Assembly (NCBI GenBank): GCA_041664225.1
Contig: JBAYLE010000001.1
Location: forward strand, 132,939 to 196,938
Source: Parcubacteria group bacterium
Lineage (GTDB): Bacteria; Patescibacteriota; Minisyncoccia; Moranbacterales; UBA2206
Direction of reading: 5' to 3'
Length of the DNA stretch: 64,000 bases
Position numbers and translations under genes: made by a program. Positions 669 through 56,210 of the stretch are shown piece by piece (position 1 is the stretch's first letter; each line of letters opens with the position of its first letter). Under the pieces are notes generated by a model that was not told the origin of the DNA, searched no databases, and saw only the letters and a list, made by a program, of their open reading frames with translations.

Positions 669-879
669 TATTTCTCTCTTACTTTTTCTTTCCGCAAGAA
701 AAAGTAACAAAAAGAACTCTCAGCCGGACAAAATTTCCAAACAAATTCTGCGCTCGCAAGCTAAAAGTTCACGGCTGCTTCCGCCAGGGACGGAATCAAG
801 GAACTTTTCAAACGCTCGCTCTCTTGAATTTTGGAGAAATTTTGTAGGCTGAATAATTTTTTTATTGGCAATAATAATA

Positions 880-11064: not shown

Positions 11065-12996
11065 ATGGCGAACTTGACCAAAAACAGAAACTATAAAATA
11101 GGGAGCAGGTGCGCGATGAAAAAAGACGGCGTTGAAGTTTGCAACAATCGCCGGATATCGGTGTTGCTATTTTTTATTTTAATAATAATAGTGGCTGTTA
11201 TTTTCAAATTATATTCTTTGCAAGTACTTTCTTATGATTCATACAAGGCCTTGGCGGATGGCCAGCACACCTTATTTCAGGAATTGGTGCCTAAGCGCGG
11301 AGAAATATTTTTGAAAGATAAAGACAATTTATATCCAGTGGCCGTGAATCGCGAGACTAAGATGGCTTACGCTGTGCCCAAAGAAATCGAAAATATTCCG
11401 GAAACGGCGCGCTCGGTGGCTGCTGCCTTGCAAGTTGACCAAAGTGAGATGATGGCTAGATTCAGTAAATCGGAAGATATGTATGAAGTCATAAAGCACA
11501 AGCTGGGTGATGAAGAGATTGAAAAGATAAACAATTTAAAATTGAAGGGAATCCATTTAGCGGATGAAAGCTACCGATATTATCCTTCCGGGGAATTGGC
11601 AGCGAACGTTCTGGGTTTTGTAGGCTGGAAAGATAATGATTTCGGCGGCAGATATGGGGCAGAAGCATATTTTGATTCGCGGTTGAAGGGGGAAGAGGGG
11701 GAGATAACGCAAAGCCGAGATGCCTCCGGCGGCGGTGTGTTGATAAGGGGCAAAAATTTAGTGCAAGCCAGGGATGGCGATAATGTCATACTCACGATTG
11801 ATCATAGCGTGCAATACGAAACAGAAAAGCTCTTGAAAGCCGCAATTGAAAAAAACAATGCGGATAGCGGCTCTATAATTGTTATGGAACCTCAGACCGG
11901 GCGTATCCTAGCGATGGCCAATTATCCCACATTTGATCCAAATAATTACACCCAGGTAGAAGACATCTCGGTTTACAGGAACACGGCGATAAGCGACGCA
12001 TATGAGAGCGGCAGTGTTTTCAAGGCGATAACTATGGCGGCTGGGCTGGATAACGGATCTGTCAACCCGGACGCGACTTACAAAGATACCGGAGTCGTTA
12101 AAGAGGCAGGATACACAATCCAAAATTCTGACAGAAAAGCCAACGGTATCCAGACAATGACCCAAGTTTTAGAAAAATCACTGAATACGGGGGTTATTCA
12201 CGTGGAGAAATTGGTGGGCAATAAAAATTTTGCAGACTATGTGAAACGCTTCGGTTTTGGAGAATCAACCGACGTTGATCTTGTAGGGGAAGCGAGTGGT
12301 AATTTAAACAATTTAAAAAATTTAAAAAGCAATATTCAATTCTTCACTTCCGCCTTTGGCCAGGGCATCACTGTTACGCCAATTCAGCTGGCGACTGCCT
12401 ATAGCGCCATAGCCAATGGAGGAGTTTTGATGAAACCGCAAATAGTTGATAGAATAGTGAATCCCAATGGAAGCGAAGAGAATTTTCAGCCACAGGAAGT
12501 CAGACGGGTTATCTCTGAAAAATCAGCAACTTTATTAGTACAAATGCTCCGAAGTGTGGTGACTATTGGACATGGGAAAAGGGCGGATGTGCCTGGATAT
12601 CTGGTGGCTGGGAAAACTGGAACCGCCCAGGTGGCTAGTTCTGAGGTTCGGGGCTATGTGGAAGGCATAAACATCGGATCGTTTGCCGGGTTTGCGCCAA
12701 TGAACAATCCGCGCTTTACTATTTTAGTCAGAGTCAATAATCCAAAAAGCGTTGATTGGGCAGAATCAAGCGCGGCGCCGGCTTGCGGGGAACTTATGAA
12801 ATTTTTATTGGATTATTACAATATAGAACCAACAGAACAATATACGCAGGCGGATTTGGATAAATTCAATATGACGCATAATCTAAGTGATTATTTTATC
12901 AAGAATCCGGACGATGATGAAAATCTGACTGTGAACGCGATAACCAATCCGACTTCTGCCAAAGCCGAAGATCCTAAGAAAAAAAAGAAGAAATAA
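11065..12996 (+). CDS. ftsI: penicillin-binding protein 2/3 (peptidoglycan D,D-transpeptidase FtsI)
   Basis: N-terminal TM, SxxK (SVFK) and KTG (KTGTAQ) motifs. An alternative start at 11116 (MKKDG...) is possible. Confidence 0.9.
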   Translation: MANLTKNRNYKIGSRCAMKKDGVEVCNNRRISVLLFFILIIIVAVIFKLYSLQVLSYDSYKALADGQHTLFQELVPKRGEIFLKDKDNLYPVAVNRETKMAYAVPKEIENIPETARSVAAALQVDQSEMMARFSKSEDMYEVIKHKLGDEEIEKINNLKLKGIHLADESYRYYPSGELAANVLGFVGWKDNDFGGRYGAEAYFDSRLKGEEGEITQSRDASGGGVLIRGKNLVQARDGDNVILTIDHSVQYETEKLLKAAIEKNNADSGSIIVMEPQTGRILAMANYPTFDPNNYTQVEDISVYRNTAISDAYESGSVFKAITMAAGLDNGSVNPDATYKDTGVVKEAGYTIQNSDRKANGIQTMTQVLEKSLNTGVIHVEKLVGNKNFADYVKRFGFGESTDVDLVGEASGNLNNLKNLKSNIQFFTSAFGQGITVTPIQLATAYSAIANGGVLMKPQIVDRIVNPNGSEENFQPQEVRRVISEKSATLLVQMLRSVVTIGHGKRADVPGYLVAGKTGTAQVASSEVRGYVEGINIGSFAGFAPMNNPRFTILVRVNNPKSVDWAESSAAPACGELMKFLLDYYNIEPTEQYTQADLDKFNMTHNLSDYFIKNPDDDENLTVNAITNPTSAKAEDPKKKKKK

Positions 12997-19727: not shown

Positions 19728-19947
19728 ATTTCCACTTTCTTTTGGCAGCAAAAGAAAGTGGAGAAAAAAAACTGCCGGCACAGGCTCGTGCTGGCTGAAT
19801 TTCTAATCTGGCTCGCTAAAATTTATACGCTCGCGGCGAGCTATGATAAATTTCTTAACGTTCGCCAGCTTGAAATTCAGAAATGCACTTCGCAATGTGC
19901 GGGAATCTGGTTTGATTACCAAGAAGTAGAATATTTCGCATGCTCGA
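19728..19947. repeat. copy A of a ~220-bp structured repeat family (two copies in window)
   Basis: ~90% identical to 52300-52519. Contains a perfect 12-bp hairpin ccactttctttt-ggcagc-aaaagaaagtgg, then gccggcac-aggctc-gtgctggc, then the long-range pair ctgaatttc...gaaattcag and further hairpins. Confidence 0.6.
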
Positions 19948-20036
19948 TTTATTTATAAAGTTAGTTTTTTTGAAAAATAAAAAGACCACCAAACGCTGAT
20001 TATACGAGCGAGTGGTGGCGGATACTGGATTCGCAG

Positions 20037-20219
20037 CTATTTTTTGAGATAATTGATTGCTGCTGTGAGAGAGATAAGTCCGCAAAGAACTGCTAATCCT
20101 CCACAAACGGAGTTCATCGCAAAGCCGGAAAATATTGCTGTTAAGACAAAGCCAATGATGATTCCTTTTGCTTCGTTTTCGATTACCATCCCAACATCTG
20201 TCGGTCTTTTGTATGGCAT
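20037..20219 (-). CDS. hypothetical small membrane protein (60 aa)
   Basis: ATG preceded by AGGAGA; MPYKRPTDVG... followed by two hydrophobic segments. Confidence 0.35.
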   Translation of the reverse strand: MPYKRPTDVGMVIENEAKGIIIGFVLTAIFSGFAMNSVCGGLAVLCGLISLTAAINYLKK

Positions 20220-20374
20220 ATTATTCTCCTTGTAAGGAAATTTTTGCATAGAATAACGCTGTACTCCATGATCTGTTATTATACTCCAAAACAACCCAAA
20301 AGTCAATAACTGGTGTGTAATAGATAAATTTTGCTTTAAATAAGCTTAAAAATAGCACAAAAGAAAAAAAGATT

Positions 20375-33454: not shown

Positions 33455-33940
33455 TTGGAAATAAATTTGGAGGTTTATGCAAGAGAAAAGAAAAAAAGCA
33501 TGAAATCACGAGAAAATTATCAACTATCGCCAGAAGAAATAGAAAAAGCAGAGGATAATATGTCGGAAACGGAAAAAAGGTTATCTGAAATTAGAAATGT
33601 AAGTGTGGAAAATTTTAAAAGAAATACCGGTAAAAGTGGCATGTTGAACCTGCTGAATAAAGAGATGCCACGAATTGGAGATTTTAATGTGATAATGAGT
33701 AAATGGAAAATAGCGGGAGAAATTGAGGGTCATCAGATAGAATTAGTAGCTGATGCTGATCATGAAGATAATGACAGATTTTATAATTATAGAGGTCTAA
33801 TAGATGGAAAAGAATTAACAATGGAGGACGCCCAAATGCTTTGGGAGAAATATCATGCTTTCGCAGAAAAACTGAATCTGGAAGAAGAAGAGCTAAAAAA
33901 GCGTGCCCGGACAGAGAATGCGCTAAAAGACGTCCTTTAA
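33455..33940 (+). CDS. hypothetical protein (N-terminus paralogous to the next gene)
   Basis: ENYQLSPEEIEKAEDNMSETEKRLSEIRN aligns to ENYQPTLGEVEDAKENMTEKEKKSSEVRE of the downstream ORF. Confidence 0.45.
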   Translation: MEINLEVYAREKKKSMKSRENYQLSPEEIEKAEDNMSETEKRLSEIRNVSVENFKRNTGKSGMLNLLNKEMPRIGDFNVIMSKWKIAGEIEGHQIELVADADHEDNDRFYNYRGLIDGKELTMEDAQMLWEKYHAFAEKLNLEEEELKKRARTENALKDVL

Positions 33941-33965
33941 GGGTTATATTTGGGGAAGTAAAATT

Positions 33966-35108
33966 ATGGAATCACCAGAAAATTATCAGCCAACTCTCGG
34001 GGAAGTAGAAGATGCGAAAGAAAATATGACAGAGAAAGAAAAGAAAAGCTCGGAAGTCAGGGAGCAAAATTGGGAGCAGCAACAGCCACCGTGGGAAGAT
34101 TTTGGTGATAATGTTGATGAAAAAGGCTATAGAAAACCGCCAAAACCAGAAGATGAGAAAAAGATGAGGCAGAGAATCGTTGAATTAGGAGAGCTTTTTA
34201 AGGACGCTGATTTTAAATGGCATCTCGATGGTGCTATCAATATTTCATTAATGAAAGGCGAGTTTATCGGTGTCCATAAAGATGTTGATATTTCCGTTGA
34301 AAAGGCGGAGCTTTCAAAGCTAGACGATCATTTGGGGCAAAGGGGTTACGGACTATTTATTTCTTATCTTCCGAAAGGATCTGAAAATAAAATTTTGCGC
34401 AGAGTCGGAGCGGAAAATTTCGAAGTAACGACCGACGAAGCATTACAAATTGCGGCAATTGATGAAAATGGAAAATTAAAACAAGATAGGGAATTGAATT
34501 TTATCGACGTGCATATTATCAAGCGGAATGAAGATGGGGTTCAGCTAAGCAAGCACGGTAATGGCGTAGGATTGCCGCAAAGATGGTCCGAATCCCAGAC
34601 AACGGAATTTAAATCTGAAAAAATCAACTTGGCTCATCCCGCAGAAATTGCCTATTTCAAGTTGTGGCAGGAAAGAAATTACGATCTGACTGATTTACAT
34701 AAATTAGCGGAAAGCGGCAAATTAACCAATGAAGACATCAGTGAGGTTGAAAATATTATTGAAAAGGAATTTATTGAAAACAAAAAAAGAGGAAAGCATG
34801 GGATGGAAGATGTGGCTATTGAAATTACAGCGAATATGTCTGCGGATGAAATTTTAAATATTTTTTCCAAAAATCCAATTTTCAAGAGTGGTGTTGAAAA
34901 TTGGAGAGAAGTATTCAGTGAATTTACTGAAAAAATTGCGGAAAGTAAAGATAAATCTGCTGAGTTTATGTTTAATTTAGGTTTAAAATTTTTTAACGAG
35001 GAGGGCAGAAATAATATAATTCGGCAAAAGATTAAAATAGTCAGGCAGTGGATAAGGGAAGCGGAAAATTTGCAAGAAGTTCGTGACAAATTAAAAAATA
35101 ATTTATAA
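33966..35108 (+). CDS. hypothetical protein with Lnu(A)/ANT(2'')-like minimal nucleotidyltransferase core
   Basis: KWHLDGAINISLMKGEFIGVHKDVDISV matches the W-LDGG-x-G-x-H-x-D-I-D pattern of lincosamide / aminoglycoside-2'' nucleotidyltransferases. Long N- and C-terminal extensions. Confidence 0.45.
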   Translation: MESPENYQPTLGEVEDAKENMTEKEKKSSEVREQNWEQQQPPWEDFGDNVDEKGYRKPPKPEDEKKMRQRIVELGELFKDADFKWHLDGAINISLMKGEFIGVHKDVDISVEKAELSKLDDHLGQRGYGLFISYLPKGSENKILRRVGAENFEVTTDEALQIAAIDENGKLKQDRELNFIDVHIIKRNEDGVQLSKHGNGVGLPQRWSESQTTEFKSEKINLAHPAEIAYFKLWQERNYDLTDLHKLAESGKLTNEDISEVENIIEKEFIENKKRGKHGMEDVAIEITANMSADEILNIFSKNPIFKSGVENWREVFSEFTEKIAESKDKSAEFMFNLGLKFFNEEGRNNIIRQKIKIVRQWIREAENLQEVRDKLKNNL

Positions 35109-37665: not shown

Positions 37666-37694
37666 TTGTTATATTTCTCAATTTATTCTATAAT
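37666..37694 (+). promoter_or_regulatory. sigma-70 promoter upstream of the ftsA-like gene
   Basis: TTGTTA - 17 nt - TATAAT. Confidence 0.45.
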
Positions 37695-37789
37695 AAAGGC
37701 ATAAAACAAAAAAACGCGCCTGATGGCGCTAGAAATTTTAAATGGGAATTTTTTCCAAAATTTTAGGTTCGGGGGGATCAGGAGATTAC

Positions 37790-45070: not shown

Positions 45071-45526
45071 ATGGCTGTTAAAAAAGTTAAAGAAGAAACA
45101 ATAAAAAAAGAAGAAACCAAATTGCCGGACGGCGAGTATTTTTATGCGGTTGGGAAAAGAAAGACTTCCATAGCGCAGGTTAGAATTTATCTTGCTTCAA
45201 AGGCGCCACAAGGCGTTGTGGTGAACGGCAGAAATCTCGATAAATATTTTACTCTGGAAAGACTGCAAGCCACGGTTAGCGCTCCATTGGTAGCAGTTGG
45301 CCAGGAGGGCAAGACCGATGTAATCGTAAAGGTGGTTGGCGGTGGAATTACTGGGCAAGCAGAAGCAGCCAGACTTGGAATCGCCAGAGCCTTGGTCAAA
45401 TTTGACAATACTTATAAAAAGACTCTGCGCGATCTCGGATTTATGACTAGAGACTCTCGAATAGTTGAACGTAAGAAGCCAGGCTTGAAAAAGGCCAGGC
45501 GGGCTCCGCAGTGGGCAAAACGATAG
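45071..45526 (+). CDS. rpsI: 30S ribosomal protein S9
   Basis: ...GGGITGQAEAARLGIARAL...KKPGLKKARRAPQWAKR. Confidence 0.95.
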   Translation: MAVKKVKEETIKKEETKLPDGEYFYAVGKRKTSIAQVRIYLASKAPQGVVVNGRNLDKYFTLERLQATVSAPLVAVGQEGKTDVIVKVVGGGITGQAEAARLGIARALVKFDNTYKKTLRDLGFMTRDSRIVERKKPGLKKARRAPQWAKR

Positions 45527-45559
45527 TAACTGTCTATATAATATTCTCGGATATAATCA

Positions 45560-45587
45560 AAAAACACCTCTTGAGGTGTTTTTTTAC
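45560..45587. terminator. bidirectional terminator between rpsI and the convergent PEGA-domain gene
   Basis: aaaaaa-acacct-cttg-aggtgt-ttttttt. Confidence 0.65.
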
Positions 45588-45624
45588 AACCTTTTTTGCC
45601 GTTAAAAGAAGATTGGAAGAGCTT

Positions 45625-52299: not shown

Positions 52300-52519
52300 G
52301 TTTCCACTTTCTTTTGGCAGCAAAAGAAAGTGGAGAAAGAAAACTGCCGGCACAGGCTCGTGCTGGCTGAATTTATAATCTGGCTCGCTAAAATTTATAC
52401 GCTCGCGGCGAGCTATGATAAATTTCTTAACGCTCGCCAGCTTGAAATTCAGAAACGCACTTCGCTATGTGCGGAGATATTTTATTATTGAAAAAAGACG
52501 CATATTTCACATGCTCGAG
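52300..52519. repeat. copy B of the ~220-bp structured repeat family
   Basis: ~90% identical to 19728-19947 in the same orientation. It starts ~7 nt upstream of the dus start codon on the opposite strand. Confidence 0.6.
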
Positions 52520-56038: not shown

Positions 56039-56169
56039 ACGGTGAAAGGGATTGCTTTGTATATCGCAGCACTGATGTGCGCGAGACAGAGCAATCCCTT
56101 TAATTTTGGCTAAATTTAAGGGCATTGGTGAAATAGTTGACAGGATGATTTGTAGTAGTAAAATAGCAA

Positions 56170-56196
56170 TTAGCACTCGGACTTGACGAGTGCTAA
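56170..56196. promoter_or_regulatory. CIRCE operator (HrcA binding site)
   Basis: TTAGCACTC-N9-GAGTGCTAA, a perfect match to the CIRCE consensus, overlapping the hrcA promoter. Confidence 0.85.
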
Positions 56197-56210
56197 TGGG
56201 GTGCTATAAT
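56183..56210 (+). promoter_or_regulatory. sigma-70 promoter of the hrcA-grpE-dnaK operon
   Basis: -35 TTGACG lies inside the CIRCE spacer; 16-nt spacer; extended -10 TGcTATAAT. Confidence 0.6.

Follow-up and report, generated by a model that had tools for sequence, protein, structure and literature searches.

A multicopy family of structured non-coding elements in Moranbacteria with a possible triple-helix cap

Copies of the element in the window

The window analyzed here, a 64-kb (64,000-nucleotide) stretch of contig JBAYLE010000001.1 from a Parcubacteria group bacterium, contains at least three copies of a structured intergenic element of ~175–200 nt, representing two subtypes. Copy A, a type 1 element (19728..19947), occupies the gap between the trxB stop codon (19726), which is 5 nt from the start of the element, and the terminator (19983–20020) of a small open reading frame (ORF) on the minus strand. 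Copy B, also type 1 (52300..52519), is located between a zn-ribbon ORF/cysS and dus, all three on the minus strand; 10 nt separate it from the dus start codon, which is on the other strand. Copy C, a type 2 element (671..874), is a diverged third copy directly behind the rplL terminator, 9 nt after it.

A first-pass annotation of the window had described a two-copy element formed by related ~220-nt stretches at 19728–19947 and 52300–52519, one following trxB and the other near the opposite-strand dus. A repeat search of the window bears out both the pair and its contexts: 19729–19917 and 52301–52489 align without gaps at 94% identity over 189 nt, and they are the only long repeat found in the 64 kb. 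Identity rises to 97% over the span from helix P1 to helix P4 (described below), and the five substitutions within the 189 nt (a/g, c/a, t/c, t/c and a/t) are not adenine-specific. Past P4 the likeness is weaker yet real, as had been noted, and ends in a common 17-mer, ATATTTCRCATGCTCGA, at 19947/52518. The count of two did not hold, given the third copy at 671–874 and the presence of two subtypes over several species.

Two covariance models describe the element: R1, built from 11 type 1 sequences, and R2, for type 2. R1 matches copy A with 226 bits (E 1e-59), and E-values of ~1e-59 for copies A and B exclude a chance resemblance. Copy C scores 47 bits with R1, which placed it at 675–880, and 218 bits with R2, which placed it at 671–874. 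Weak covariance-model matches at 45517–45623 and 37673–37773 are ordinary terminator hairpins and were not accepted as members.

A family with two subtypes

Relatives of the window organism and metagenome contigs contain ~17 further members. A degenerate 24-nt pattern, drawn from a segment common to the window and a partial copy in the relative L004 (L003–L101 being our labels for loci or contigs of relatives and metagenomes compared with the window), gave 20 matches in a scan of JGI metagenome contigs, of which 17 are clear homologs and three are chance matches. R1 also revealed second copies in L070, L079 and L088, and covariance-model matches are distributed over the window plus 12 other contigs. 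All members apparently come from one subclade of Candidatus Moranbacteria, part of the candidate phyla radiation (CPR), and the family seems confined to near relatives of the window organism, itself a metagenome-assembled genome of Candidatus Moranbacteria. R1 and R2 identify no member in ~45 other Moranbacteria loci totaling 0.9 Mb, and no covariance-model match is present in the 10 kb upstream of the window. When the element was compared by blastn with 63 trxB loci of GTDB genomes, a half-element in L004 was the only result, and the covariance models found nothing in these loci. Viral contigs gave no match to three exact patterns, and phages and plasmids gave no blastn match to the element.

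None of the 4227 models of Rfam 15 matches the element, at either gathering or permissive thresholds. Only tRNAs reach the gathering threshold in the window; six member loci and the surroundings of copies A and C yield nothing beyond sub-threshold matches of hairpin type (E 0.001–10). We conclude with high confidence that these sequences form a previously uncatalogued family of structured, non-coding, multicopy elements.

The two subtypes differ in how the body of the element is closed. Type 2 lacks P2 and P4, and its body is instead closed by a 15-bp outer helix in which TCAGCC..CAAAATTTC pairs with GAAATTTTG..GGCTGA. Modules are exchanged between the subtypes: two type 2 members, L070b and L088a, carry the type 1 apical hairpin, and L095 combines both types as a hybrid. 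In copy A, the 17-nt motif at 19931–19947 is homologous to the 3′ strand of the type 2 outer helix.

Fold and covariation

The first-pass annotation had named four helices, and all four exist (19732–19761, 19778–19791, 19795–19803/19872–19880 and 19885–19900). One of them is reduced, in that only the inner 4 bp (GCAC/GTGC) of a proposed 8-bp hairpin are conserved and its outer GCC overlaps the pseudoknot partner CTGCC. Together with a pseudoknot involving the loop of P1, these helices make up the type 1 structure that was tested, comprising 54 pairs and 588 cells. Standard pairs fill 94.6% of the cells in the plus sense and 96.6% in the minus sense. Two-sided, compensatory change is seen at 19 of the 54 pairs, and none of 500 shuffles reaches the main measures. 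Sliding the partners by 1–3 columns lowers pairing to 35–44% in the plus sense, and slid controls as a whole lie at 30–46%. For type 2, 97% of cells are paired and 12 of 47 pairs show compensatory change, again with 0 of 500 shuffles as high; the outer helix is almost wholly rewritten in L088a and L078. Covariation thus supports the strong secondary structure claimed at first pass, as do the folding energies of copies A and B, both strands of which fold better than dinucleotide shuffles (z −5 to −6).

P1 (19732..19761; 52304–52333 in copy B, 679–707 in copy C) is a 12-bp hairpin, CCACTTTCTTTT/AAAAGAAAGTGG, with the loop GGCAGC (19744–19749); five of its 12 pairs are compensatory and 98% of cells are paired. 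It is followed by a homopurine tract, AGAAAAAAAA (19762..19771; 52334–52343 in copy B, 708–717 in copy C), which is U-rich in the minus sense, mirrors the P1 purine arm and is a candidate for the third strand in a triple helix; the family consensus is AGAAAGAAAA, from which copy A departs by a G>A change. The next segment, CTGCC (19772..19776; 52344–52348 in copy B), is the partner of the P1-loop bases GGCAG (19744–19748). This predicted pseudoknot is supported by covariation, with 98–100% of cells paired and a change on both sides in L073 (GGCGC/GCGCC).

P2, GCAC-AGGCTC-GTGC (19778..19791; 52350–52363 in copy B), is replaced by the compensatory GTCCCG...CGGGAC in L075. The core rod (19795..19880) contains TTAACGCTCG, common to both subtypes, and consists of P3 (19795–19803 with 19872–19880; 52367–52375 with 52444–52452 in copy B, 743–748 with 826–831 in copy C), P3a (19808–19812 with 19864–19868), P3b (19819–19826 with 19846–19853), an apical hairpin (19829–19841) and a conserved internal loop, CTTAACGYTCG (19854–19864). 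Compensatory changes occur at two pairs each of P3 and P3a, at four pairs of P3b and in the apical stem. P4, GCAC-TTCGCAAT-GTGC (19885..19900; 52457–52472 in copy B), is invariant within type 1, is followed by a T-run in many members, and covaries in L095 (CCGC/GCGG) and L079b (GCGC/GCGC). In copy C, the outer helix pairs 720–725 and 729–737 with 836–844 and 847–852, and a T-run is present at 857–863. RNAalifold indicates that P2 and P4 may also pair with each other in a long-range closing helix like the outer helix of type 2. L075 supports the local P2 and L073 the long-range form, and a switch between the local hairpins and the P2–P4 helix is possible.

The 17-nt motif ATATTTCGCATGCTCGA (19931..19947; 52502–52518 in copy B) lacks a 5′ partner in copy A and is probably vestigial; it recurs behind the Y1_Tnp gene of L004. 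We rejected a promoter identity for this downstream 17-mer, which instead corresponds to the 3′ strand of the type 2 outer helix. Two segments are flagged as terminator-like, namely P4 with its T-run in copy B (plus strand) and P1 with AATATTATTT in copy A (minus strand); the stems involved are AT-rich or otherwise weak, and some copies lack the tracts.

Substitutions in the element are compensatory for helices and not synonymous. Nine of the 11 type 1 members carry a 1-nt indel relative to the window copies, and other indels are of 1, 2, 4 and 5 nt. When the frame considered at first pass is translated, seven of nine homologs reach stops within 16–35 codons. Judged by these alignments the element is non-coding, and the earlier argument against a conserved protein stands.

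A candidate triple helix

Read on the minus strand, a U/C tract, UUUUCUUUC, lies 5′ of the hairpin CCACUUUCUUUU-GCUGCC-AAAAGAAAGUGG and matches the P1 purine arm, AAAAGAAAG, in parallel register, which is the register that Hoogsteen U·A-U and C+·G-C triples require. Across eight sequence variants, this register gives 7–9 consecutive canonical U·A-U/C+·G-C triples, versus 4–7 in other registers. The internal G of the purine arm is found at five different positions or is absent, and the Watson-Crick C and the tract C always follow it. Asymmetric variants disfavor antiparallel Watson-Crick pairing of the tract. At the level of sequence, the element thus has the strands expected of a triple helix of the ENE/MALAT1 kind, two of them U-rich and one A-rich, with the third strand parallel.

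We know of no DNA mechanism for the maintenance of mirror repeats, and a three-stranded structure is therefore the simplest explanation for the pattern. One point on the other side is that a purine-motif triplex of the plus-sense DNA would yield the same mirror repeat. On balance, we give even odds to the tract and P1 forming an RNA triplex. In one type 2 member (L088 7192–7402, minus strand), the post-P1 linker contains a perfect 16-nt palindrome, TCCGCCAGCTGGCGGA, that interrupts the putative third strand. A 10-nt likeness of the type 2 apical region in the minus sense, GGAAGCAGCC, to domain IV of signal recognition particle (SRP) RNA was set aside as coincidence, with no Rfam SRP support and with type 1 lacking the region.

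Which strand folds

Three observations favor the minus strand as the one that folds. First, the 54-pair type 1 structure contains 19 G·U cells in the minus sense, versus 5 G·U and 17 A·C or C·A cells in the plus sense, and the minus sense also gives the higher covariation score. Second, the elements at dus and relA are embedded in minus-strand operons, 9–11 nt ahead of the start codon. Third, a canonical plus-strand terminator immediately precedes P1 in copy C and L079a, making plus-sense read-through unlikely at these two copies. The plus strand had been assumed at first pass; the wobble counts and the triple-helix register instead favor the minus strand, which we regard as the probable, though far from certain, folded strand. 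Folding energy was dropped as a strand indicator: it is lower on the minus strand in 16 of 19 members, with equal shuffle z-scores (−6.2 versus −6.3), and the asymmetry is purely one of base composition.

Proposed small RNA and its significance

Our preferred interpretation, to which we assign a probability of roughly 0.45, is that the element encodes a multicopy small RNA (sRNA) on the minus strand with a triplex/pseudoknot cap at its 3′ end. The RNA would be read from the minus strand of the window and act as a folded single strand. Its rod-like body would begin with the outer helix or P4/P2 and continue through P3, P3a, P3b, the apical hairpin and the conserved internal loop CGAGCGUUAA. The 3′-terminal cap would consist of the U/C tract followed by the 12-bp P1, whose purine arm could bind the tract in parallel orientation as a third, Hoogsteen-paired strand. 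In type 1 only, the P1 loop would pair with GGCAG just upstream of the tract to form the pseudoknot. The cap might protect or define the 3′ end of the RNA, a stabilizing role that we propose only tentatively, and the conserved loops of the body, notably CGAGCGUUAA, may bind a partner. Copies would have spread by duplication or mobilization into terminator-proximal gaps, with gene conversion homogenizing them. The first-pass annotation had offered a pair of paralogous sRNA genes and a small mobile or repeat element as its two options, and both are retained.

Triple helices of the ENE/MALAT1/PAN type are known from eukaryotic and viral long non-coding RNAs and from plant and fungal transposon RNAs. 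In the minus sense the strand order is the same, with the U-rich Hoogsteen strand followed by the U-rich Watson-Crick strand and an A-rich tract at the 3′ end, and 7–9 stacked U·A-U triples broken by C+·G-C are similar in length to the MALAT1 helix. The element differs in being bacterial, in having its U-rich strands joined by a 4–5-nt turn plus a 4-bp extension and not by a stem-loop, and in having its A-rich strand joined to the duplex by a 6-nt loop that is pseudoknotted in type 1. The comparison would also place the end of the RNA at the cap. The element could be a bacterial counterpart of ENE/MALAT1, an encoded triplex of 8–9 layers, locked by a pseudoknot in type 1, that shields the 3′ end from exonucleases, although we consider such an equivalence rather unlikely. 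The bacterial triplexes listed in a 2026 review are confined to those of riboswitches and group II introns (PMC13541005). If the proposal is true, the element would provide the first description of a long major-groove triplex cap in a bacterial RNA that is not a riboswitch.

The genomes of CPR bacteria are very small, and to our knowledge almost no non-coding RNAs have been described in them beyond the universal ones. Several conserved and homogenized copies per 64 kb of a streamlined genome would most likely represent either something useful or an unusually successful selfish element; at one locus, the element sequence is better conserved than the flanking proteins. Long RNA triple helices have so far been a eukaryotic and viral theme, and the three-way covariation provides a concrete handle on whether they cap bacterial RNAs too. 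R1 and R2 can be used to annotate the family and to explain recurrent assembly breaks in Moranbacteria metagenome-assembled genomes.

Alternative explanations

The alternative that survives best is a plus-sense RNA, either a 3′-untranslated region (3′-UTR) element of the upstream gene or a 3′-UTR-derived sRNA. Such an RNA would carry a 5′ H-type pseudoknot (P1, GGCAG/CUGCC) with the A-rich linker in the minor groove of P1, could block 5′-to-3′ decay, and would stop at P4 or the outer helix and its U-tract, a weak intrinsic terminator. Several findings favor it and weigh against the minus-strand sRNA. In five loci (copy A, L077, L078, L082 and L088b), only 2–6 nt separate P1 from the end of a plus-sense gene running in the same direction, counted from its stop codon, and the P1 side of 11 of the 14 independent loci faces a gene end. 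On the plus strand, most copies have a T-run behind P4 or the outer helix, as in the terminator-like P4 of copy B, and L077 has a strong, canonical plus-strand terminator directly after P4. The plus sense agrees better with the classical H-type topology and with the loop lengths of the pseudoknot; in the minus sense, 0–1 nt would have to span the minor groove of a 5-bp helix, which is sterically strained. In addition, strand-biased mutation could explain part of the wobble excess, and a consistent −35/−10 promoter was sought on both strands and found on neither.

The plus-sense RNA has its own difficulties, beginning with its 17 A·C mismatches against 5 G·U pairs. There is no room for a promoter before P1, and none is conserved there. 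At dus, relA and hrcA, the gene upstream of the element points away from it, and copy C and L079a have a strong terminator ahead of P1. In type 2, the U-run begins 4–6 nt past the helix, too far for a canonical terminator, and minor-groove contacts do not need the linker to be mirror-symmetric. We consider a plus-sense RNA unlikely.

A selfish, non-autonomous mobile element is a further alternative, and a less probable one. Here the element would be of single-stranded DNA type, similar to the palindrome-associated transposable elements (PATEs) of IS200/IS605 or to REPINs, and would be mobilized in trans by an HUH/Y1 transposase, with structure selected at the level of single-stranded DNA; this is compatible with the RNA readings. 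In its favor, the family is multicopy and restricted to one lineage, and it occupies orthologous sites patchily. The cysS–zn–dus site is filled by type 1 in the window and L087, by the hybrid in L095 and by type 2 in L097, and is empty in L094 and L098. The trxB–malic site is filled in the window and L075, contains a Y1_Tnp gene in L004, L005 and L092, and is nearly empty in many others, and the gap upstream of hrcA has an element pair in L079 and none in the window. Tail-to-tail pairs occur at two loci (L088 and L079), and contigs end inside or at the element in L003, L101, L081 and L085, which is what a repeat that disrupts assembly would produce. Neither terminal inverted repeats (TIRs) nor target-site duplications (TSDs) were found in the repeat search or the flanks, as stated at first pass and as in IS200/IS605 elements. 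The wobble bias on one strand is also consistent with mobility, as is the Y1_Tnp gene of L004, which abuts half of a type 2 element.

Against mobility, no transposase, TnpB or reverse transcriptase gene is present in the annotated neighborhoods of the copies examined, and 74 kb of the genome of the window organism contain no tnpA. The neighbors are unrelated housekeeping genes (trxB, rplL, dus/cysS, topA, relA, comEC, hrcA, uvrC and genes for the CCA-adding enzyme and a MurJ-like flippase). Structural constraint extends over the whole element and is not limited to its ends, and the borders lack a conserved target motif. Copies are kept at the same site in species whose flanking proteins share merely 59–77% identity at the dus site. 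Because four species carry an element at the copy B site and two carry one at the copy A site, these copies are not simply recent insertions. Positional orthologs lie in L075 for copy A and in L087, L095 and L097 for copy B. Identity to the orthologs is only 78% for copy A and 84% for copy B, versus 97% between the two copies, which indicates homogenization within a genome.

The Y1_Tnp genes of the relatives are associated with a repeat of a different kind. Following trxB, these genes of 220–223 aa with a weak Y1_Tnp domain (L004 10922–11656, L005 10967–11691, L092 10925–11649 and L029 11135–11640) are flanked by 21-nt palindromes, CTTAGAC-N7-GTCTAAG, which they also carry in frame (LGHPMSK, LRHPMSK, LRPPRSK) and whose stems covary between genomes. 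The palindromes are unrelated to the element and absent from it and from the window, which counts against mobilization by these genes and led us to reject a REP/REPIN-RAYT identity. One more such palindrome is found inside the dus coding region of L087 (990–1010), which suggests in-frame insertion into genes, as for the Rickettsia palindromic elements. In L004, the 3′ half of a type 2-like element (ttaacgctcgttcacttgaatttatagcataATATTTCACATGCTCGA; 11668–11735) directly follows the Y1_Tnp gene and palindrome; insertion of that gene apparently cut short an older element.

If the element were a leader controlling the following minus-strand gene (dus or relA) in cis, as riboswitches and attenuators do, this would account for P1 ending 9–11 nt ahead of the start codon of relA and, in four species, of dus. 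This reading is contradicted by the wider set of contexts, which are convergent (copies A and C, L071, L086 and L088) or tandem in either orientation, and never divergent, with copies sitting in terminator-proximal intergenic gaps. In copies A and C, L071 and L086, no gene follows on either strand, and L073, L077, L078 and L082 are antisense to the dus/relA arrangement. Neighbors lack a common function across members, in line with the initial view that there is no consistent cis-regulatory association, and we rejected a leader as very improbable. Finally, the ORFs of 66 and 53 aa might represent a small protein gene, as the frame left open after a GTG start in both type 1 copies of the window would allow, but this reading has a negligible chance of being correct in view of the frame-breaking indels and stops in its homologs.

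Comparison with known RNAs and repeats

H-type triplex pseudoknots (telomerase RNA, SAM-II and preQ1-II) resemble the element in that a hairpin loop pairs with a flanking strand, a homopolymeric linker runs along the groove of the adjacent stem, and both stems covary. The 12-bp stem and 10-nt linker of the element are much longer, however, its genes show no ligand-type association, and type 2 lacks the loop pairing. HEARO, GOLLD, ROOL and raiA likewise have complex conserved folds identified by comparative analysis and are sometimes present in several copies per genome; the element differs in lacking a match in Rfam 15 and in not being tied to IscB, phages or tRNA clusters. 6S RNA was rejected given the lack of an Rfam 6S match, the extra terminal hairpin domain and the presence of at least three copies in 64 kb.

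Among dispersed repeats, the REP/BIME/REPIN, ERIC, Correia/NEMIS, RUP, BOX and bcr1 families share several features with the element: they are multicopy and intergenic, lie mostly at gene ends or in convergent gaps in either orientation, form subfamilies with modular variants, and break assemblies. In contrast to their simple palindromes or TIR hairpins, the element is a multi-helix rod with a pseudoknot and conserved unpaired loops, its orthologous copies are kept across species, and it has no TSD. A miniature inverted-repeat transposable element was also rejected, as no TIR emerged from the repeat search, the ends (P1 and P4 or the outer helix) are not complementary, and the flanks lack a direct repeat.

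IS200/IS605 PATEs and TnpB omega-RNAs share with the element the absence of TIRs and TSDs, structured ends, a length of ~120–200 nt and, in relatives, a Y1-domain gene at the same locus. For a PATE, the hairpins fit together with the missing TIRs and TSDs; no conserved target tetranucleotide is seen at the borders, and the 74 kb examined contain no tnpA. The omega-RNA scaffold, with tnpB adjacent, contains a pseudoknot and a triple helix, the pseudoknot being formed by the last 5 nt before the guide and the 5′ region (PMC10097598). In contrast, the 3′ end of the element is formed by a hairpin of 12 bp that pairs locally, its surroundings contain neither tnpA nor tnpB, and Rfam gives no IS605-orfB match; a TnpB omega-RNA was rejected on the basis of that layout and the missing adjacent tnpB. 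The template and variable repeats of a diversity-generating retroelement were rejected as well, since the five differences between copies A and B are not confined to adenines and no reverse transcriptase is present in the annotated neighborhood.

Additional features of the loci

The trxB–malic gap contains a small ORF for a predicted membrane protein with its own terminator (window 20037–20306, minus strand; L004 11790–11990). This ORF differs among the window, L004 and L075, marking the gap as a hot spot of turnover. In L075 (reverse complement, 1–140), only the last ~130 nt of trxB are present, preceded by unrelated AT-rich sequence, reflecting either a truncated trxB or a chimeric contig. 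Upstream of hrcA, the window contains a CIRCE operator, TTAGCACTC-N9-GAGTGCTAA, together with a TTGACA/TAAAAT promoter (56147–56197), and the same arrangement is found in L079. Finally, an 83-nt direct repeat (33494–33576 and 33960–34042, 71% identical) covers the 5′ ends of two adjacent ORFs, which are probably tandem paralogs.

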